DNA of 64,000 nucleotides from Candidatus Saccharimonadales bacterium (GCA_035480035.1 DATIID010000001.1:201323-265322), one strand, 5' to 3'. Numbered from the stretch's first letter, positions 1 to 9,272 are shown. Numbers and translations: made by a program. Notes: generated from the sequence alone by a model not told the origin.

Positions 1-270
1 GAGTTTGGAGCATGTATTGCCTACGGTGTTAACTTAAGCGCTGAAGCAGAATCACTGCTCACAAACAAACTAGTCGCTTCGTCAGGTGCTTTGATTACTA
101 ACTTAGGTGAACACGATAACTCGTCTGGAATCGACAAATTATGGACAATTTCGCATGCTGATCGGGTTGTTGATTTAAGACGACAACACATGCCCATTGT
201 TTACGATAATGGCGATATCGAAGAAGACGGTACGATTTTCTATTTGGCAGCCCGAAAATTAGGCACCTGA
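1..270 (+). CDS. 3' end (89 codons) of a CDS that starts upstream of the window; product unknown
   Basis: Frame 1 is open from base 1 to TGA at 268-270 (...IFYLAARKLGT*). It is missing from the ORF track because no start codon lies in the window. It converges on the next gene and overlaps its stop by 12 nt. Confidence 0.4.
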   Translation, partial: EFGACIAYGVNLSAEAESLLTNKLVASSGALITNLGEHDNSSGIDKLWTISHADRVVDLRRQHMPIVYDNGDIEEDGTIFYLAARKLGT

Positions 271-2610
271 TAATTTTTCGAGTTTAAATTGGGTGGCGCG
301 CTCGGCGGCTAAACGAGTTAATTCAGGATCTTCGCCTTTATTTACAAATTTCATGGCTTCGGCTAATAACGGATGTTTTTCGGCTAACTGCTCATGCATT
401 TGCTGGACTAGCTTACGATAGCCCGGGTGACCTTGTGGCGAAGTGCGTAGTTCATGCAAATGAAAAGCTTCACGGGCATTGTAGGTTACGGTCCAACGCA
501 TTTTATGCCCAAGTAAGGTGGCATATTGAGCTTCATAGGTATAACCGGTGGCTTGGAGTTGGCTGTAAAGCTGCGCCGACAAATCAAAACACCGCTCAAA
601 CTTATCATCAAGGCCTGCTTCACTAACAAGTTCAGGAACATCAAATCCATAACGTGGACTTAAAGCTTGCCATTCTAAGTCGTCAACCATGCGATGGCGT
701 TGCAAATCTCTGAAGATACCATAATCACAAACTAAATCCCATGTGTAATGGGCCTGTTCGAGTGCCCGGCCAGGTCGGTGACGGCGGTTTAAGCGTTCGC
801 CCACATAAGTTTCAAACACCTTCATTTTTTGCTCGATCGACCATTTTTCGGTAACCGATTGCAATTCTTTGATTGATAACGAACTGCTTTCGTATAGCAT
901 ATAGGGTATTAACTCCAGCTCATTGACGGGCCACGCTCGAATCAACTGAACAGCAGGTGGCATTTCACCGTAAGATTCAGTTAAATATTGCTTGGCTAAA
1001 TCGGCTACTTGGTGTCTGGTGTTTGCCAAATAAGCAGTTGTAGCGCCGCCTCGTTCGGGATTGTCGGCCCGTTCTAGAAAAGTCGGCATTGCCTTTCGGG
1101 CTTCTTCTAAGATTTGATCGCCAACCGTTTGAGCTTCTAGGCTGTCACTCGCTCTCAGATGCATTATCAAGCTTTCCAGGGCCTGAGCACTAGCAAAAAT
1201 GCCAACAGTTGACTTAGTAGCCACCGGTAATACTGGTCTGATGGCGTCACAGGCTTGGGCGCGAATGGCCGAGCGCCAAGCACCGTCTTGCTCAGCTTTT
1301 GGAACTGTCGATTTTCGACTGATATAATCAGTTAATTCGTGAACCATGTCTGAATAAAGGTCAAATATGGTATCCATCGTTTGTACGTAGTCGTCTCGAG
1401 TTTGATTATCTAATTGAGGCGGCAGGAAGTATTTGTACCGTCCATCAGCTTGGCGCTGGTCAAAGTAAATATAGCGTGTGGATTGCTCAAGGTATGCGGC
1501 CAACCGACCCCACTCTAACTGCTTGGTTAACAGATTACTGGCGTTTTCGACAACCACATGTAGTCCGGCAAGCTGTTGAACGGAATCGTCACCGTAAGCT
1601 GTGATAACCCTTTTTAGCAAATCAGCATCACGGCCCTCATTTCCGGCAAATTCATCAAGTAGAGTAATACGCATATCATCACCTCGTCGGCTAAGTCGGG
1701 CCATGGCTGCAGCAATCGTTATTGGGCTTAACTTGTCTGTAAAGGTGTATACATTACCGCTTATGTTGGTGACGGCTTGGTTTAAAAACTCTTGGCCATC
1801 AGGTGTGATAGCAAAGGTTTTATCGTCATTTTTAATAATGTACTGCTTTACTTCACTACTTAAAGAGGGTGTTGAAGTCGCCACAGCCGGTTGGCTAACA
1901 GCGTGGACTTGGGCTGGCAACAACGGTTCAATCGTTTTCCATAGAATATCTTGGATAGCCTCGATGCTAAGTAACGCCCCATCACGAACGCAATCAATCC
2001 TAGTAAAATCTTTCGGAAATAATTGACACAGATCATCATAGACCTCAACCGACTTTCGGAGGTGATTAATATCGGCTTCGTGGATGTCCCGTTTGTTAAC
2101 GGTGTAACTACGTGATGGTTTTTCATCGACGAGTTTTTGTGCTACCTCGGCCGGAACCCTTAACACAAAAGATTTATCCGGCCTGGGGATGCCCAACATT
2201 TCGAACTCTAAATTATCAAGCCATATGAAATAACCACGCCGCTCCTCAGCGTTTTGAAATTTACCACCCTGGTGAGCCATGTTTGACCCGGTAAACCGAT
2301 TTGCTAATACGACTTTTCCAGCTGCTAAGGCTTCTTTAATTTGAAATGAAATATCATATCGATTAAGTGCAAAAAATAATGAGGCAGTGTAAGGCCCGAC
2401 TTGATCCCCGCTACCATAATGGCCGTTTAGGTATTCTCGTACAAAGTAGCTGGACGGTTCTTCATAAAGCGGAAAATCAAACATCGCAACATCGTAGCCC
2501 TCAGACTCGAGTTTTTCAGCCAACAACTTAAATTGAGTACCCTTGCCAGAACCATCAGTGCCTTCTATGACAAAAAATACACCACGTTTAACTTGACTGC
2601 TATCATTCAT
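259..2610 (-). CDS. thyX: Fusion protein: N-terminal thymidylate-kinase-like P-loop domain (aa 1-230) plus two ThyX-like (flavin-dependent thymidylate synthase) repeats (aa ~255-783)
   Basis: 783-aa ORF. P-loop IEGTDGSGKGT with Tmk-like architecture at the N-terminus. ThyX signature RHR-x10-SPRY at aa 638-654 and a degenerate copy WGR-x7-STRY at aa 367-380. Each half has a ThyX-like LR...AQ C-terminal motif. The ATG overlaps the dcd stop (ATGA). Confidence 0.75.
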   Translation of the reverse strand: MNDSSQVKRGVFFVIEGTDGSGKGTQFKLLAEKLESEGYDVAMFDFPLYEEPSSYFVREYLNGHYGSGDQVGPYTASLFFALNRYDISFQIKEALAAGKVVLANRFTGSNMAHQGGKFQNAEERRGYFIWLDNLEFEMLGIPRPDKSFVLRVPAEVAQKLVDEKPSRSYTVNKRDIHEADINHLRKSVEVYDDLCQLFPKDFTRIDCVRDGALLSIEAIQDILWKTIEPLLPAQVHAVSQPAVATSTPSLSSEVKQYIIKNDDKTFAITPDGQEFLNQAVTNISGNVYTFTDKLSPITIAAAMARLSRRGDDMRITLLDEFAGNEGRDADLLKRVITAYGDDSVQQLAGLHVVVENASNLLTKQLEWGRLAAYLEQSTRYIYFDQRQADGRYKYFLPPQLDNQTRDDYVQTMDTIFDLYSDMVHELTDYISRKSTVPKAEQDGAWRSAIRAQACDAIRPVLPVATKSTVGIFASAQALESLIMHLRASDSLEAQTVGDQILEEARKAMPTFLERADNPERGGATTAYLANTRHQVADLAKQYLTESYGEMPPAVQLIRAWPVNELELIPYMLYESSSLSIKELQSVTEKWSIEQKMKVFETYVGERLNRRHRPGRALEQAHYTWDLVCDYGIFRDLQRHRMVDDLEWQALSPRYGFDVPELVSEAGLDDKFERCFDLSAQLYSQLQATGYTYEAQYATLLGHKMRWTVTYNAREAFHLHELRTSPQGHPGYRKLVQQMHEQLAEKHPLLAEAMKFVNKGEDPELTRLAAERATQFKLEKLSGA

Positions 2611-3320
2611 CGCGCTTTTAAACCAGGGATGGCCTCCGGCAATTGTCGATTATCCTTGTAAGCTCGTGGTAACATTTGTTCTGGCGTCCAATTTGCAATA
2701 ATCGTCGGCAAGTCACTACCGCTTTGGTACTTACCACTAAAACCATCATCACGGCCTTCACCATAACTGCCCTCCACTGGACCGGTCTCGTGAAATATAG
2801 CTTGACCAATCCGTTCGCCAACCGGTAATAATACGGTTTCTTTCTGGTTAAGGTTAAAAATTTCTAAAGTTAAGCGATTAATATAACCTGGATCAACCCA
2901 ACCAGCATCAAAACAAACAGCAATACCGTTACGACCCCAGCTGGAGCGTGACTTTAGCTCATAGGCACCGGGCGGCTTAATACCAAAAAACTCATGAGTG
3001 TGAGCTAAAATCCGTTCGCCTGGTCGGATTGGAATGACCGGATGATCTGGCGGTATACCCTTTAGTAAGCTGGCCCCATTTTTAAAACACCAATCTTGAT
3101 GAGTCACGGCTTGGTGTGGACCAGAAAAATAGCGGTTTACATCACTCTCGTCGAATGGATTATAAATGGTATGGTCGCCATCGCGTTCCGTTCGGTAATA
3201 GTAGTAGCCAAGTGTTACATCGAGACTGGCGTGAGCGACATGCTTTGGCATAAACGGCTCACAAACAATATGACCCTCTTTAATGGCTGCCCGAATTTGC
3301 TGATTGCTATAAACTCCCAC
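2607..3320 (-). CDS. dcd: dCTP deaminase / dUTPase-superfamily protein
   Basis: Motifs IRAAIKEGHIVCEPF and GWVDPGYINRLTLEIFN are typical of Dcd. I prefer the GTG start at 3320, preceded by AGGAGGG (3324-3330). The track TTG start at 3374 would translate a hairpin/promoter-like region. Confidence 0.75.
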   Translation of the reverse strand: MGVYSNQQIRAAIKEGHIVCEPFMPKHVAHASLDVTLGYYYYRTERDGDHTIYNPFDESDVNRYFSGPHQAVTHQDWCFKNGASLLKGIPPDHPVIPIRPGERILAHTHEFFGIKPPGAYELKSRSSWGRNGIAVCFDAGWVDPGYINRLTLEIFNLNQKETVLLPVGERIGQAIFHETGPVEGSYGEGRDDGFSGKYQSGSDLPTIIANWTPEQMLPRAYKDNRQLPEAIPGLKAR

Positions 3321-3344
3321 TAACCCTCCTAATAAACTAACTAC

Positions 3345-3387
3345 ATTGTACGGTTTGTCAAAACCATGACGCAAGCATAAGCGTCAT
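3345..3387 (-). promoter_or_regulatory. Intercistronic hairpin (3366-3387) plus candidate promoter between tmk and dcd
   Basis: Minus strand reads ATGACGC-TTATGCTT-GCGTCAT followed by GGTTTTG (7-bp stem). TTGCGT (3369-3374), an 18-nt spacer and TACAAT (3345-3350) lie upstream of the dcd SD and GTG. Confidence 0.3.
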
Positions 3388-3398
3388 ATTTTACATCA

Positions 3399-4025
3399 TT
3401 ACAACTCGTTTAATATGTTTTGATGGACGGTAGCTTTATCTGGTTCAGCATTGATCTCGACTACTTTGACCCCTAAATTAGATTGTTTCAAATACATTAG
3501 TCCGGCCATGTAGCCCTGACGGACATGCAAATGGTAATCTGACCCCTTTTTTTCAAAATAATCGGTATTGCCGCGGGCTTCACGCCGTTTATCAAGAATA
3601 CTTTGGGCGGCGGTAAGATAAATTAATGTATCAATCTGTAAACTTTTGACCATGTCCAAGCAGGACATTAAAGCTTCGTCTTTATTTGTCATTTGACTAG
3701 CAAAGGCGTTATAAGCGACCATAGCCAACGGACTGCGGTCAATGATTATCATTTCTTTAGATTTACGGTCATTAATATCTTCAGCAAGTGCTTGGCACAT
3801 GGCCCGGGAAATATAAAAGTCGGTTTGACCAGAACGTGGTAAATCGTCATTCAATGAAACTTGTCGCAGCGCTTCACCAATTGGCGTACCGCCAGACATT
3901 CGAGTAGCGTGAACGGTTTGACCCTGCATGTTAAAATACTCGGTTAAAAGCTTAACTTGCGAGGATTTGCCAGCTCCGTCAGGACCATCAATGGCAATTA
4001 CTCGGTTGTGGGCTTCAGCACTCAT
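3399..4025 (-). CDS. tmk: Thymidylate kinase (canonical bacterial type)
   Basis: P-loop IAIDGPDGAGKSSQ, TRMSGGTPIGEALR (TREPGGT-like) and a DRS (DRY-type) motif. The gene starts 9 nt after the rplA stop. Confidence 0.85.
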   Translation of the reverse strand: MSAEAHNRVIAIDGPDGAGKSSQVKLLTEYFNMQGQTVHATRMSGGTPIGEALRQVSLNDDLPRSGQTDFYISRAMCQALAEDINDRKSKEMIIIDRSPLAMVAYNAFASQMTNKDEALMSCLDMVKSLQIDTLIYLTAAQSILDKRREARGNTDYFEKKGSDYHLHVRQGYMAGLMYLKQSNLGVKVVEINAEPDKATVHQNILNEL

Positions 4026-4034
4026 GCTGATATT

Positions 4035-5000
4035 CTACACTTCGGCGGGGCTAACTAAAATTGACGGGCCCATTGTAGTGGTCACGTAAAGGCTGGTTAC
4101 ATAATTGCCTTTGATGCTTGAAGGTTTAGCCGATTTAATGCTACTTAAAATTGCCTGGCAGTTTTGAATTAACTTATCTTTGCCAAAACTAACCTTACCG
4201 CAGGCGACATGGATAATGCCGGTACTGTCAATTCGGTATTCAATACGACCGGCTTTGGCTTCGGTCACCGCTTTTTCGATATTGGTAGTAACTGTACCGC
4301 TTTTGGGGTTTGGCATTAGGCCTTGAGGACCAAGCAGACGAGCGAACTTGCCAAGTTTGCTCATGTTGGTTGGGGTAGCGATCAAAATATCAAAGTTAAT
4401 CGTGGCTTTTTCAAGCTGTCCCAAGAATTCATCGCTACCAGCAATATCGGCGCCGGCTTTCTTGGCTTTAGCGACGTCATCTGGTTCAGCAAAAACGGCT
4501 ACCCGTACTGTTTTGCCCGTCCCGGCTGGCAGAACTACGGTTTGACGAATATTTTGGTCGGCCTGTTTAGGATCAACACCTAATCTAACATGTAGCTCAA
4601 CACTGGCATCAAACTTAACTGGGCTGGTTTTTAGGGCTAGTTCAATAGCTTCAGCCAGGCTGTAAACCTTGCCTTTTTCAATCAATGTGGAGACTTTTTT
4701 ATAAGCTTTACTACGACGTTCTAAACGTGACCGGGCCGATTTAACGCTAACTTTAGGTTTAGCCGGTGACTCATCAGTTTTAGACGCAGTTTTACGCTCC
4801 TCTTTGGCTTGTTTTACTTCAGTCTCAACTAGTGCTTTGTGACTGCGCTTACCTGCTTTAGCCTTGGTTACTTCTCTTTGGACTGGCTTTTCAGCTGTTT
4901 TAGTCTCAGGCTGACTACTTTCTTGATCAATCCCATCTTTAATTTCTTCCTTTACTTTTTTAGCTACTTTAGCGTTTGCGACTTTCTTGGCTTCAGCCAT
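4035..5000 (-). CDS. rplA: 50S ribosomal protein L1 (uL1) with a ~105-aa K/A/E-rich N-terminal extension
   Basis: The uL1 core starts near aa 106 (SKAYKK..., LGPQGLMPNPKSGTV). ATG at 5000 is preceded by AAGGAGG with a 5-nt spacer. The track GTG start at 5042 is rejected. Confidence 0.9.
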   Translation of the reverse strand: MAEAKKVANAKVAKKVKEEIKDGIDQESSQPETKTAEKPVQREVTKAKAGKRSHKALVETEVKQAKEERKTASKTDESPAKPKVSVKSARSRLERRSKAYKKVSTLIEKGKVYSLAEAIELALKTSPVKFDASVELHVRLGVDPKQADQNIRQTVVLPAGTGKTVRVAVFAEPDDVAKAKKAGADIAGSDEFLGQLEKATINFDILIATPTNMSKLGKFARLLGPQGLMPNPKSGTVTTNIEKAVTEAKAGRIEYRIDSTGIIHVACGKVSFGKDKLIQNCQAILSSIKSAKPSSIKGNYVTSLYVTTTMGPSILVSPAEV

Positions 5001-5056
5001 GATTCCTCCTTCGTGGTTCAAACGGTAAAATTTACCTCCCACAAATTGTTTAATAA

Positions 5057-5485
5057 TTATTCGACTTCTACGCCCATACTTCGGGCCGTTCCAGCCACCA
5101 TTTTCTTAACCGCTTCAATGTCATCGGTATTCATGTCGCCAGCTTTGGCTTCGGCAATTTCTGTTAAAGCATTCTGCGATAGCTTCTTACTGACCTTTTC
5201 ACTGTTTGGTCGGCCTGAACCTTTCTGAATACCGAGTTTTGCCCGGATTAAATCATCAGTTGGTTCACCAACTACTCGAAAACTCATTGTTCGGTCTTCA
5301 TAAATAGCAATATGAACAGTTAAGTTCTTACCTTGTAAATCCTTGGTTCGTTCATTGAATGGTGTAACAAAGTCCATCATATTAACACCGTATTGACCTA
5401 AGGTACTACCAACAGGCGGTGCGGCACTAGCTTGACCGCCCCGTAATTTCATCTTTAAATTAGCTGTAATCTTCTTTTCTGCCAT
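5057..5485 (-). CDS. rplK: 50S ribosomal protein L11 (uL11)
   Basis: Hallmark AAPPVGSTLGQYGVN. Canonical position upstream of rplA. Confidence 0.95.
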   Translation of the reverse strand: MAEKKITANLKMKLRGGQASAAPPVGSTLGQYGVNMMDFVTPFNERTKDLQGKNLTVHIAIYEDRTMSFRVVGEPTDDLIRAKLGIQKGSGRPNSEKVSKKLSQNALTEIAEAKAGDMNTDDIEAVKKMVAGTARSMGVEVE

Positions 5486-5531
5486 AAAAAATACTCCTAT
5501 GGAGTGCGTAACTAGATAAGCTTACTACAAT

Positions 5532-5747
5532 TCACCCCTGTTGTCTAGCGAAAGCTTTACTAAGATAATAGCTGGCAGTGGCAAAAGTTGTGGCCGCAAT
5601 AGCCGGTTCATGAGCCAAAGTTGCCAATAAAGTTAAACCACCAAGCGCCATGACTTCTGGAGTGGCCATTTCCCGGATACTAACATCAGTTTCAGTAATA
5701 ATTGAATTTATTTCGTATGCAATTATGCGGTCTTCGATTTCACTCAT
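5532..5747 (-). CDS. Hypothetical 71-aa protein with a hydrophobic C-terminal half, lying between nusG and rplK
   Basis: ATG ORF with no recognisable SD and no motif I recognise. It could instead be part of an rplK leader. Confidence 0.3.
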   Translation of the reverse strand: MSEIEDRIIAYEINSIITETDVSIREMATPEVMALGGLTLLATLAHEPAIAATTFATASYYLSKAFARQQG

Positions 5748-6737: not shown

Positions 6738-7874
6738 TCAAGCTAGATTTTTATTCGGTGCTGACTGCTCTAAATTAGGTATAAAAACTGTAAATGTGGT
6801 ACCTTTGTTAATTTCGGACTCTAAATTGATTTCGGCATGGAGTAAACGCACTAGTTTCATAGTAACGTAGAGACCAAGTCCGGTACCTTTATTTTTACGT
6901 GTCCGGAAGTCTTCACTGCGAAAAAACTTATCAAAAACCTTGTCTTTGTCACTTTTACTAATGCCAATCCCGGTATCACTAACGTAGAAAACCACACCTT
7001 TACCCTTTGGCTTGGCGCCAATCACCACATGTCCTGCCTCAGTATATTTAATGGCATTGGTGATAAAGTTCTGCAAGACTTCACGGACATATAATCGACT
7101 TGACTGAAGAACTTCTAATGACGGATCGATGTCGCTTTTAAGCTCCAATCCCTTTTTCTGAGCATCAGGTGCGTAGTTCTTAAGCAGTTCTTCAATTAAT
7201 TCGGCAACGTTAATTGATTCTACTTCAACAGCTAACTTACCTCTTTCAGCTCGCGATAGCGTCGACAGGTCATTAATCATACCAGCCAAGAAAATAATCT
7301 GATTGTAAGTTTCTTTTAAGGAGGCTTTAACAGCATTCAGATCGCCGCTTTTTTCTAGTATAAACTGGGCATTACCGACGTTACCCTCAGCAATGGCGAT
7401 GGGTGTTCGCAGTTCATGACTGACTACACTAATAAATTCGTCGCGCTCCTCCTCCAACGATTTCTCGCGTGTAATATCACGGAGTAAAATAACGTAGCCT
7501 CTCATACCTGCTTGGCCATAGCCCAGCCGTACCGGTGCGATACTAATATACAAACTAATGTTTTCACCATCAGGGTAAATTAATCGCCAGTTGCGTGAAG
7601 CTGTTGAAATTTTAGTTTCTAAAATTATCTTTGTGACGTCTATTGGTTGGTTATTTTTATCGACCAACTTTAAGACAGCATGTATTGGCTTAGCAGTTAT
7701 AGTACTATTGACATCCAAAATATTTAAGGCTGCGCCATTATAAAGTACCACGTTGGCCTGTTCGTCAATGGCAATAACACCATCGGCCATACTGTTAATT
7801 AGGCTGCGTAAACGTTCATGTTCCAGTTCGGCGGTCGATGCGGCAATCGATGGTGTCGTTTTGTCATCAAGCAT
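6738..7874 (-). CDS. Cytoplasmic PAS-domain sensor histidine kinase (orphan)
   Basis: H-box SHELRTP and HATPase_c boxes (DTGIGI, GTGLGL). No TM segment. No response regulator elsewhere in the window. Confidence 0.9.
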   Translation of the reverse strand: MLDDKTTPSIAASTAELEHERLRSLINSMADGVIAIDEQANVVLYNGAALNILDVNSTITAKPIHAVLKLVDKNNQPIDVTKIILETKISTASRNWRLIYPDGENISLYISIAPVRLGYGQAGMRGYVILLRDITREKSLEEERDEFISVVSHELRTPIAIAEGNVGNAQFILEKSGDLNAVKASLKETYNQIIFLAGMINDLSTLSRAERGKLAVEVESINVAELIEELLKNYAPDAQKKGLELKSDIDPSLEVLQSSRLYVREVLQNFITNAIKYTEAGHVVIGAKPKGKGVVFYVSDTGIGISKSDKDKVFDKFFRSEDFRTRKNKGTGLGLYVTMKLVRLLHAEINLESEINKGTTFTVFIPNLEQSAPNKNLA

Positions 7875-7911: not shown

Positions 7912-8610
7912 TCAGAAATAGAGACTAGGTCGGTGTCCGCGAATTTCCTTGCGTATCTCAGGAAGGTTTGGGATATATTTATCTAATTCTTTCCAAAACC
8001 GGGAGCCATGGGCCATTATTTTGGTGTGCGTTAGTTCATGGAGTAATACATAATCAATCAGGCGCCACGGTAGCTGCATTAGATAACAATTTAAAGTAAT
8101 GTTGCCAGACTGATCACAACTACCCCATCGACTCGACAGACGCTTAATTTGGACTGATCGATAGTTAAAACCATGTCGTTTAGCGACTTGCTGGAGTCGA
8201 TTAGGAAGTAATTGTTCGGCCTCTTGTTTGAGCGCTTTCTCGACCGCTTTATGGGCTAGACTTTGAGCTGCCACACTGATTGTTGTTAACTGTCTCGGTA
8301 AAATAACTTTGACGTCACTGCCATTGATTCTAGTTGATGCTCGTCCTGATGGTTTTTCGACAAAAACTAATTGATGGGCTTTCCCGATGCGCATCTTATC
8401 ACGTAAGAAACGTTTGGGTGGCTGATTTTCCTTAATCCAATCAATTTTACTGTGTAAAAAATTAATTCCTAACCGGTAGGGTGTCCAAGTTGGCATGGTT
8501 AGTCTGACTTGACCATTATTACTAATATTTATACGTAAACTGCGGCTCTGGCGTTTTTTTTGTAAACTAACCAGACCAATACCAGGGATATCAACTGTTT
8601 TAACCGGCAT
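7912..8610 (-). CDS. YgjP/DUF45-type (M48-like) zinc metallopeptidase family protein
   Basis: WGSC...HELTHTK zinc-binding motif near the C-terminus. The ATG overlaps the upstream stop (TAATG). Confidence 0.65.
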   Translation of the reverse strand: MPVKTVDIPGIGLVSLQKKRQSRSLRINISNNGQVRLTMPTWTPYRLGINFLHSKIDWIKENQPPKRFLRDKMRIGKAHQLVFVEKPSGRASTRINGSDVKVILPRQLTTISVAAQSLAHKAVEKALKQEAEQLLPNRLQQVAKRHGFNYRSVQIKRLSSRWGSCDQSGNITLNCYLMQLPWRLIDYVLLHELTHTKIMAHGSRFWKELDKYIPNLPEIRKEIRGHRPSLYF

Positions 8611-9272
8611 TAGCGAATCGAGATATTACGACGCGTAGAGTCAACTCGACCGCCATTAATGTTCGGTACTAAATTAACCAGGCCCGGTTTAATCAATTTA
8701 TCAGTGGCGGTTTTAGTCTGGATTAGACCAAGGTCGTAAAGTCTTTTAACGATCGCGGCCCGTTGGGTTTGATAATTATGCTTACCACTGATAACGACGT
8801 AATCTTCGCTGATTTGCGGATTTTGCATGCGTCCAACAAAATATTCGAAAGCGGTTCGATCATACTTTTTGGCATAACGGTCATCAACTTTACGATGATC
8901 GCGGCGAATCGCCCGGTCAAAGGCACTTTCTAGATCAATTTGTACCCAAATGATCAAGGTCTTAACTTTGTGTTTTTGAGCCAAATTACGCAAGTTGCGG
9001 CGTTGACCAAGGCCTAAAATATTAGCATCAAGAACGACACTTAAACCGGCCTTTAAAAATTCATCAACCATATATTCCGTCAAACGACTGACGTTGTCGT
9101 CTTCTTGTTTGTCATAGCGTGGTTGTTCAAATATCTCAGAGCGAATGCGATCTGATTGGATATTAGCAGCTAGTAGGTCATCACTTAGCTGGCGAGCTAA
9201 AAAGGTCTTACCGGCTCCCGGAAAGCCATAAATCATAATCAATGTTGGTCGTGACAGCTCTAACTTGCTCAT
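8610..9272 (-). CDS. Small P-loop kinase / AAA_33-like ATP-binding protein
   Basis: Walker A GFPGAGKT at aa 16-23. Its ~180-aa kinase-like fold length and a DANIL Walker-B-like segment fit this family. Confidence 0.65.
   Translation of the reverse strand: MSKLELSRPTLIMIYGFPGAGKTFLARQLSDDLLAANIQSDRIRSEIFEQPRYDKQEDDNVSRLTEYMVDEFLKAGLSVVLDANILGLGQRRNLRNLAQKHKVKTLIIWVQIDLESAFDRAIRRDHRKVDDRYAKKYDRTAFEYFVGRMQNPQISEDYVVISGKHNYQTQRAAIVKRLYDLGLIQTKTATDKLIKPGLVNLVPNINGGRVDSTRRNISIR

Follow-up and report, generated by a model that had tools for sequence, protein, structure and literature searches.

In this study we describe a predicted 783-residue protein encoded in a 64,000-nucleotide stretch of DNA from a Candidatus Saccharimonadales bacterium (GCA_035480035.1, DATIID010000001.1:201323-265322; below, the window), in which a thymidylate kinase (Tmk) domain is fused to two tandem copies of the flavin-dependent thymidylate synthase (FDTS), ThyX. 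We believe that this protein is probably a bifunctional enzyme for the last thymidine-nucleotide steps in Saccharibacteria, members of the candidate phyla radiation (CPR), and that it combines a split-role tandem ThyX with a Tmk. In our model, the C-terminal 530 residues would be an anciently duplicated ThyX in which the labour of the canonical homotetramer has been divided between two halves. Half B would supply the residues that hold flavin adenine dinucleotide (FAD) and activate the uracil (R638-H639-R640, R713 and R722), and half A would supply, in trans, the loop that binds deoxyuridine monophosphate (dUMP) and the phosphate clamp (S377, R379, Y380 and R458). Two polypeptides would then make up a pseudo-tetramer in which two composite sites are competent and two further sites are vestigial. 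The N-terminal domain, a Tmk of the Mycobacterium tuberculosis type on a flexible linker of 15-20 residues, would phosphorylate thymidine monophosphate (dTMP) to the diphosphate (dTDP), and an upstream, translationally coupled deoxycytidine triphosphate (dCTP) deaminase would feed the pathway. The domain identities, the conserved residue pattern, a confident model of the pseudo-dimer, the conserved operon and the co-variation with thyA and DHFR (dihydrofolate reductase) are shown here, whereas we infer the oligomeric state, a stoichiometry of two sites and the activities of the enzyme, as well as any channelling; a putative channelling from dUMP to dTMP to dTDP is plausible.

The fusion gene occupies positions 259..2610 of the window on the minus strand, as do all features of the fusion given below. 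It starts with an ATG that overlaps the stop of the upstream dCTP-deaminase-like gene (ATGA) and encodes 783 amino acids followed by a stop codon. The chain consists of the Tmk domain (aa 10-232, 1915..2583), an interdomain linker (aa 233-251, 1858..1914), ThyX half A (aa 252-530, 1021..1857), which we propose as the dUMP-loop donor with a degenerate FAD/RHR site, and ThyX half B (aa 531-783, 262..1020), the putative FAD-binding catalytic core. Pfam assigns Thymidylate_kin to aa 15-206 (E=1e-18, 68 bits against a cutoff of 27) and Thy1 (PF02511) to two stretches (E=8e-39, 133.8 bits against a cutoff of 24.8), the one in half A spanning aa 296-510. The open reading frame (ORF) and these domains confirm the original prediction that a single chain carries a Tmk domain and two halves of ThyX fold. 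The AlphaFold2 model of the full fusion has a predicted local distance difference test score (pLDDT) of 93.6. The linker is rich in Ala, Ser, Thr and Pro, unconserved across 120 homologues, and disordered in the model from aa 238 to 251 (pLDDT <50). One database protein (P0001) is 100% identical to the fusion and is named only 'FAD-dependent thymidylate synthase [Ca. Saccharimonadales]'.

A Protein Data Bank search with the single fusion sequence returned Tmk matches only and no ThyX; ThyX was reached with profiles of each half. The half A profile matched M. tuberculosis ThyX (3gwc) with E=7e-9, pairing 'ALEWGRLASYLEQSTRY' with M. tuberculosis 'ELIRHRHFSYSQLSQRY'. In this half, W367-G368-R369 ... 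S377-T378-R379-Y380 (WGR-LAAYLEQ-STRY, aa 367-380, 1471..1512) is aligned to M. tuberculosis 'RHRHFSYSQLSQRY' and to Thermotoga maritima ThyX, and the M. tuberculosis alignment bears out the earlier claim that the first repeat has lost the RH and kept S-x-R-Y. The arginine R458 (1237..1239), present in half A only, corresponds to T. maritima R147, as hhalign pairs 'AIRPVLP' with T. maritima 'VARIVLP'. The half B profile matched the ThyX proteins of Helicobacter pylori, PBCV-1 (Paramecium bursaria chlorella virus 1) and T. maritima. Here R638-H639-R640, a 10-residue spacer and S651-P652-R653-Y654 (RHR-MVDDLEWQAL-SPRY, aa 638-654, 649..699) were placed by hhalign, which pairs 'RHRMVDDLEWQALSPRY' with T. 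maritima 'RHRIAS---YNELSGRY' (probability 91%) and so reproduces the three-residue insertion that had been noticed in the second repeat; the T. maritima sequence used was 100% identical to 1KQ4. The half B RHR also falls on the RHR of H. pylori ThyX, and 'NAREAxHLxELR' on 'NARSLQNLLTLR'; in the fusion this segment is N711-A-R713-...-H717-...-L-R722 (445..480), equivalent to T. maritima N163, R165 and R174. All motif coordinates in the original prediction agreed when recomputed from the ORF (nt 1471-1512, 649-699 and 2293-2301). Thus, neither half contains a complete RHR-x7-S-x-R-Y signature: half A reads WGR-x7-STRY, half B reads RHR-x10-SPRY, and the full set is found only when the two are combined.

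Direct comparison of the half A and half B profiles was barely significant (hhalign, E=1e-3). This marginal similarity suggests that the duplication is ancient. Support for a duplication comes from the separate match of each half to ThyX, not from a resemblance of the halves to each other.

To see how the catalytic residues are shared out, we used a residue census of 252 proteins (120 close homologues, 98 tandem ThyX proteins that lack the kinase and 34 more distant fusions), with T. maritima residues mapped by hhalign. The RHR belongs to half B. R638, H639 and R640, at the positions of T. maritima R78, H79 and R80, are each 97-100% conserved; the corresponding residues of half A are W367 (W, R or D in the family), G368 (never H) and R369 (~100%). 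The loop belongs to half A, where S377, R379 and Y380 (T. maritima S88, R90 and Y91) are ~100% conserved in both the fused and the kinase-less families. Their half B counterparts are S651, which is T or S in ~70% of kinase-less forms, and R653 and Y654, which are found in fused forms only. The arginines R147, R165 and R174 of T. maritima are complete in neither half. Half A has R458 (~100%; 120/120 close homologues and 98/98 kinase-less forms), Q476 and R486, the last of which is variable in the family; half B has Q695, R713 and R722, with the two arginines 97-100% conserved. D341 and S343 of half A are also conserved at ~100%, and R615, E618, H717 and H728 of half B at 92-100% (H717 in 90/98 kinase-less forms). 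Judged by this conservation, half A is the loop-donor set (S377, R379, Y380 and R458) and half B is the core and FAD set (RHR, R713 and R722). The original prediction of complementary degeneration in the two halves therefore stands for the conserved split sets, but at the level of the signature motif it is incomplete, because half B still reads S-P-R-Y; the complementarity becomes proper only once R147, R165 and R174 are included.

These half-specific sets can be compared with published ThyX structures, in which the active site sits where three subunits meet (PMC5954106). In ThyX from M. tuberculosis and H. pylori, subunit A holds FAD through its RHR and contacts dUMP through R199 (T. maritima R174); the FAD phosphates are bound by subunit B (S71 and R190), and subunit C contributes R87, S105, R107 and Y108 (PMC6514825). 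In PBCV-1 ThyX, monomer A provides Q75 and R182, and monomer B provides S88, Q89 and R90 (PMC3498832). Half B of the fusion keeps exactly the subunit A residues together with the R190 equivalent, and half A keeps exactly the subunit C loop. As the half-specific sets match residues that act in trans in these structures, composite trans sites are the best reading of the split. In the simplest arrangement, two tandem chains would pair into a pseudo-tetramer; two of its sites, each built from a half B core and a half A loop, would be competent and the other two vestigial. AlphaFold2 predicts the tandem ThyX part alone as one compact unit (pLDDT 94.7, predicted TM-score 0.90). With this model Foldseek found only single-domain ThyX chains (M. 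tuberculosis, T. maritima and PBCV; TMt 0.62-0.73, TMq <=0.34), which suggests that no tandem ThyX structure has been solved; with the full-length model, only Tmk was found among the top 50 matches.

The complementary degeneration is not peculiar to this protein. It is the ground plan of a very large family of kinase-less tandem ThyX proteins. An exhaustive HMMER search with the tandem part returned 3687 cluster representatives, 722 of them at E<=1e-30, and many are kinase-less proteins of 510-560 aa. They come from Acidimicrobiia, other Actinomycetota (Bifidobacterium, Microthrix), Acidobacteriota, Rokubacteria, Binatia and other CPR bacteria, and their database name is only 'FAD-dependent thymidylate synthase'. 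The kinase-less proteins (~510-560 aa) have the same two halves with the same residue split, at 33-55% identity over the whole tandem, but they lack the kinase domain, their spacer is one residue shorter and in half B they have a degenerate loop, with R at the R90 position in 22/98 and L or H at Y91, so that the split is, if anything, cleaner. Thus, the obligate pseudo-dimer with fewer, composite sites that was originally proposed is the best reading of the conserved split sets and of the published trans action, but it would be a trait of the whole tandem family and not of this protein alone.

A distinct subgroup of tandem ThyX proteins (P0222, P0272-P0389), with the half A motif 'LEDxRIGxSPLEKSTRY', is very abundant in DPANN archaea (Micrarchaeota, Aenigmarchaeota, Anstonellales). 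All of the 8000 scored candidates of this subgroup (8000/8000) had E<=1e-10. This suggests that the split-role tandem enzyme is common to ultra-small archaea and bacteria.

The kinase domain of the fusion resembles that of M. tuberculosis (TMPK), which is its best sequence match of known structure (1g3u and 4unn, E=3e-15; PF02223 E=1e-18). Foldseek matched it to solved Tmk structures with TMt of 0.80-0.88 (0.84 for the M. tuberculosis type). The P-loop G17-T-D19-G-S-G-K23-G-T25 (GTDGSGKGT, 2536..2562) aligns with M. tuberculosis GVDGAGKRT and fits GxxGxGK[ST], with the acidic residue that in Tmk enzymes contacts the dTMP 3'-OH. The end of the LID, 'KRDIHEAD' (aa 173-180, 2071..2094), aligns with M. 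tuberculosis 'ARDNYERD', which contains D163 and E166. In all of the 120 close homologues (120/120) we found D19, K23, R84, R105, N110, D175 and E178, the equivalents of M. tuberculosis D9, K13, R74, R95, N100, D163 and E166. Y49 (M. tuberculosis Y39) is present in 119/120, and F80 (F70) is aromatic throughout, being Y in 96 and F in 24.

The original prediction had pointed to NRF at the position of the Tmk D-R-(Y/F/H) motif, and this is correct: N104-R105-F106 (2293..2301) aligns with M. tuberculosis D94-R95-Y96. The aspartate is thus replaced by asparagine, with the catalytic R105 and the aromatic F106 kept. N104 is conserved in 119/120 close homologues; among 30 more distant fusions the residue is D in 13 and N in 12. 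Since N and D alternate among fusions, N104 looks like a tolerated substitution. The remaining differences from M. tuberculosis TMPK are H113 for Y103, G24 for R14 and fewer arginines in the LID, together with the fusion to ThyX itself. As judged from these residues, the fused kinase looks functional. A degenerate kinase was considered and set aside after the residue census, as the other catalytic residues are present and N104 interchanges with D.

The fusion is widespread. In a collection of 5.8 billion proteins (NCBI, JGI, ENA and Logan assemblies) we found more than 4096 homologues; the best 120 are 764-798 aa long, all carry both PF02223 and PF02511 (120/120), and the named members among them are Candidatus Saccharibacteria or Saccharimonadales. 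Homologues already carry the JGI label 'thymidylate kinase/thymidylate synthase ThyX'. A scan of species-representative genomes gave at least 596 confirmed relatives, the best 45 of which are Saccharibacteria loci. The reading frame is unbroken and both ThyX motifs are retained in 43/43 full-length Saccharibacteria species loci. The gene order rplA-(tmk)-dcd-fusion is conserved across the Saccharibacteria loci, with dcd directly upstream of the fusion in ~38 of the 43; many fusion loci have no stand-alone tmk nearby. The possibility that an assembly or frameshift error had joined separate tmk and thyX genes can be rejected with near certainty, as the same single ORF recurs in thousands of independent assemblies and in the 43 species-representative genomes, and nothing was found in its favour.

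Other Saccharibacteria carry tandem ThyX orthologues with a different Tmk domain (L019-L022, L024-L030, L033, L034, L037, L041, L043 and P0122, P0123, P0160 and others). This alternative domain is more conventional (GPxGVGKTT...C[LIV]xDRNYL; PF02223 up to 108 bits) and only ~20-25% identical to the fused kinase of the window, which points to domain replacement or to two independent fusions.

Some relatives have lost catalytic residues of one of the two parts. In both halves of the fusions P0147, P0153 and P0213, almost none of the ThyX catalytic residues remain, and their kinase domains are 67-72% identical to the fused kinase of the window. Across the ThyX-decayed fusions (L081/L082, 8001-10253; L083, 10001-12298; L084, 10001-12241), identity to the window protein is 53-72% in the kinase, 28-38% in half A and 38-49% in half B, which makes the kinase the best-conserved part. 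The loci of P0147, P0153 and P0213 all lie in the same ribosomal-protein neighbourhood, where dCMP deaminase, dihydrofolate reductase (DHFR) and thyA are nearby and dcd is absent. These proteins look like cases in which a ThyX pseudoenzyme domain was left on the kinase after displacement by ThyA. Because the decay of ThyX coincides with the ThyA/DHFR route, the intact tandem ThyX is normally a thymidylate synthase, we argue, and because the kinase persists in the same proteins, probably under purifying selection, it appears to be needed, and independently essential, in its own right. That CPR bacteria have acquired thyA and folA was discussed before (PMC12455944, PMC11974145).

At the L083 locus, the thyA match by tblastn falls in two pieces (4938-5694, minus strand), and the gene called there (195 aa) has no Pfam match; this split thyA may be a frameshift or a pseudogene. 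The converse decay is seen in L016 and L032 (fusion from 4001), where P-loop or DR residues of the kinase have decayed ('GIEGQTKDA...SNY' and 'GVEGSGKDT...NYNYL') and both ThyX halves are intact.

Several observations weigh against a bifunctional enzyme with a split-role ThyX. Where T. maritima has the folate-stacking histidine H53, half A has D341 and half B has P613, so that folate binding must differ from the canonical mode or the conserved H611 of half B, two residues upstream of P613, must substitute. The residues of the third subunit are themselves divided: half A alone has an equivalent of M. tuberculosis S71 (S343), and half B alone has one of R190 (R713). Both the proposed trans arrangement and the putative identity of this third subunit are read from conservation, and the AlphaFold2 models are monomeric. 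Half B retains S-P-R-Y, although the two-site model does not require it. The fusion scores 64 bits against the NCBIfam equivalog TIGR02170 (thyX), below its cutoff of 87.9, and the kinase domain falls below both dTMP-kinase equivalog cutoffs (NF005923, 111.1 against 193; TIGR00041, 66.5 against 83.25). There is a second, conventional tmk in the same operon, which makes the substrate of the fused kinase uncertain. Lastly, two loci labelled Saccharibacteria or Parcubacteria (L012, 4001-6310; L023, 4001-6295) have thyA and DHFR beside a fusion with intact ThyX motifs, and have no dcd; they may mark a transitional stage, or use both synthases.

Some of these points raise the alternative that the kinase-like domain has been repurposed, either for another nucleotide (dUMP or another deoxynucleoside monophosphate) or as a nucleotide-sensing regulator of ThyX, with the stand-alone tmk encoding the real dTMP kinase. 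The substitution of N104 for the aspartate of DR(Y/F/H), the replacement of the sugar-adjacent aromatic (M. tuberculosis Y103) by H113 and of R14 by G24, the two equivalog scores and the conventional tmk 789 nt away would all fit this idea, as would the L016 and L032 lineages, which let the fused kinase decay and kept a separate tmk. However, the other catalytic and dTMP-contacting positions of M. tuberculosis TMPK are conserved in close homologues, including an aromatic residue at the F80 position throughout, N and D interchange at 104, and many fusion loci have no stand-alone tmk nearby. Moreover, the kinase stays 53-72% identical where ThyX has decayed, which argues that it is not merely a regulator of ThyX. 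The kinase is thus not obviously degenerate or repurposed, a possibility that the original prediction had raised, and we regard a repurposed kinase as doubtful.

A different alternative concerns the S-P-R-Y loop of half B. The motif [ST]-P-R-[YF]-G-[YF] is conserved in kinase-fused forms and not in kinase-less ones; R653, for instance, is present in 120/120 close homologues and 29/30 distant fusions, vs 22/98 kinase-less forms. Moreover, this loop and the segment to ~aa 705 (648-705) stay conserved even in the ThyX-decayed proteins. From this pattern, the loop may be an interface, either of the dimer or for docking of the kinase, or else the remnant of a nucleotide-binding site in the service of the kinase. 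We tentatively suggest, as an idea that could easily prove wrong, that the ThyX module of the fused lineage uses its vestigial site or surface to bind nucleotide or to dock the kinase, and so is obligatory for an essential dTMP kinase, be it as scaffold, as allosteric partner or as a device that hands over substrate.

It is also conceivable, but in our judgement unlikely, that all four sites of the pseudo-tetramer bind nucleotide, so that dUMP or dTMP held in the two 'vestigial' ones (half A core with half B S-P-R-Y) would serve regulation or be passed on to the kinase. The restriction of the half B loop to fused forms would fit such a role, as would the persistence of the loop after the catalytic residues of RHR and SxRY have decayed. 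Half A, moreover, has an arginine at the R174 position (R486, also in 61/120 close homologues) and keeps R369 and K363. But FAD binding by half A is unlikely, since R78 and H79 are lost there and the R165 position is Q; in half B the phosphate clamp equivalent to R147 is missing (Q695); and a simple interface, between domains or within the dimer, would explain the conserved stretch 648-705 just as well.

Still less probable, we think, is that the ThyX part of the window protein is a non-catalytic scaffold or pseudoenzyme and that the kinase alone works, with thymidylate supplied by salvage or by a thyA outside the window. Related fusions do tolerate the loss of all ThyX catalytic residues, the canonical H53 is missing from both halves, and the window covers only 64 kb of the genome, leaving room for a thyA elsewhere. 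However, no residue of the split catalytic set is missing from this protein or from any of the 43 species loci that share its gene order, the syntenic position holds dcd and not dCMP deaminase with thyA and DHFR, and tblastn with thyA, DHFR and dCMP-deaminase queries gave no match within the 64-kb window. A bifunctional enzyme with a catalytic, split-role ThyX thus remains our preferred reading.

How does the fusion compare with characterised enzymes? Like the canonical homotetrameric ThyX/FDTS (T. maritima 1O26, M. tuberculosis 2AF6 and 3GWC, H. pylori 3AH5, PBCV-1 2CFA and 4FZB), it has the ThyX fold in both halves; its RHR, S-x-R-Y and the three arginines (T. maritima R147, R165 and R174) are complete when the halves are pooled, and the canonical sites are already built from three subunits. 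Unlike those enzymes, whose subunits are identical, it has two fused and strongly diverged copies that each carry a subset of the residues, with a three-residue insertion in half B, no histidine at the H53 position in either half and a score below the TIGR02170 cutoff. The kinase shares with M. tuberculosis TMPK (1G3U; NF005923) the P-loop Asp and Lys and the equivalents of Y39, F70, R74, R95, N100, D163 and E166, but differs at D94, Y103 and R14 and reaches 111 bits against the 193 of NF005923. The bifunctional DHFR-thymidylate synthase of protozoa and plants likewise joins consecutive or coupled thymidylate-metabolism enzymes in a single chain, and channelling of substrate is often proposed for it. 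However, its ThyA and DHFR folds and chemistry are unrelated, and the partner in the fusion acts on the nucleotide product and not on the folate by-product. A Chlamydia ThyX of ~529 aa, about twice the normal length, was reportedly characterised biochemically by Griffin et al. in 2005. In the literature searched we found no paper on tandem ThyX or on a Tmk-ThyX fusion. The parts are known enzymes and the architecture is already annotated in databases, but the tandem and the fusion appear to be unstudied.

Directly upstream of the fusion is the dCTP-deaminase-like gene (2607..3374, minus strand; 255 aa), which matches Pfam DCD with E=1e-30 and scores 87.8 against the TIGR02274 cutoff of 92.8; it is the presumed supplier of deoxyuridine nucleotide. 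As listed, this protein is long (255 aa) and begins with TTG, and its homologues elsewhere align only from ~residue 25, so the true start may be further downstream. The stand-alone, conventional tmk that had been predicted ~800 bp away was found at 3399..4025 (minus strand), 789 nt upstream of the fusion and separated from it by the dCTP-deaminase-like gene. It encodes 208 aa (PF02223, 64.5 bits; TIGR00041, 82.8 against a cutoff of 83.25) and is similar to the fused kinase around the P-loop only. In many Saccharibacteria loci, rplA is followed by a 250-aa P-loop protein with a weak match to deoxynucleotide monophosphate kinase (DNMK), as in L083 (2770-3531), L001, L004-L006, L016, L022, L024, L027 and L037. 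Its position is that of the stand-alone tmk in the window, where no homologue of it was found.

Further upstream of tmk in the window are rplA, rplK and nusG. Before its Pfam L1 domain (aa 137-326), ribosomal protein L1 (4035-5042, minus strand) has a Lys-, Glu- and Ala-rich N-terminal extension of ~136 residues, and the L1 of the related locus L083 is likewise long (366 aa). A small kinase resembling AAA_33/KTI12 (8610-9272, minus strand; 220 aa) abuts a YgjP-like metallopeptidase gene (7912-8610, minus strand) with one shared base (8610); 37 nt downstream of the metallopeptidase gene there is a PAS histidine kinase (6738-7874).

ThyX, an antibacterial target, relies for its catalysis on sites built from three identical subunits. 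The fused, sub-functionalised subunits described here would provide a natural asymmetric ThyX in which the roles of individual subunits could be separated, and the tandem ThyX would test whether a half-of-sites architecture is enough for activity. In ultra-small symbionts with streamlined nucleotide metabolism, the protein is a likely pathway fusion from dUMP through dTMP to dTDP. Its relatives form a comparative series, from the intact fusion, to the fusion accompanied by thyA and DHFR, to the fusion with decayed ThyX, with the converse decay of the kinase in some lineages. This series looks like non-orthologous displacement in clean form, after which a pseudoenzyme domain stays attached to an essential partner. 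If the ThyX module does serve the kinase as a scaffold or hand-off device, the transition from enzyme to pseudoenzyme would be seen at several stages in one phylum. As the protein is common and is catalogued under a generic name, the advance would be a mechanistic one and not the discovery of a new gene.

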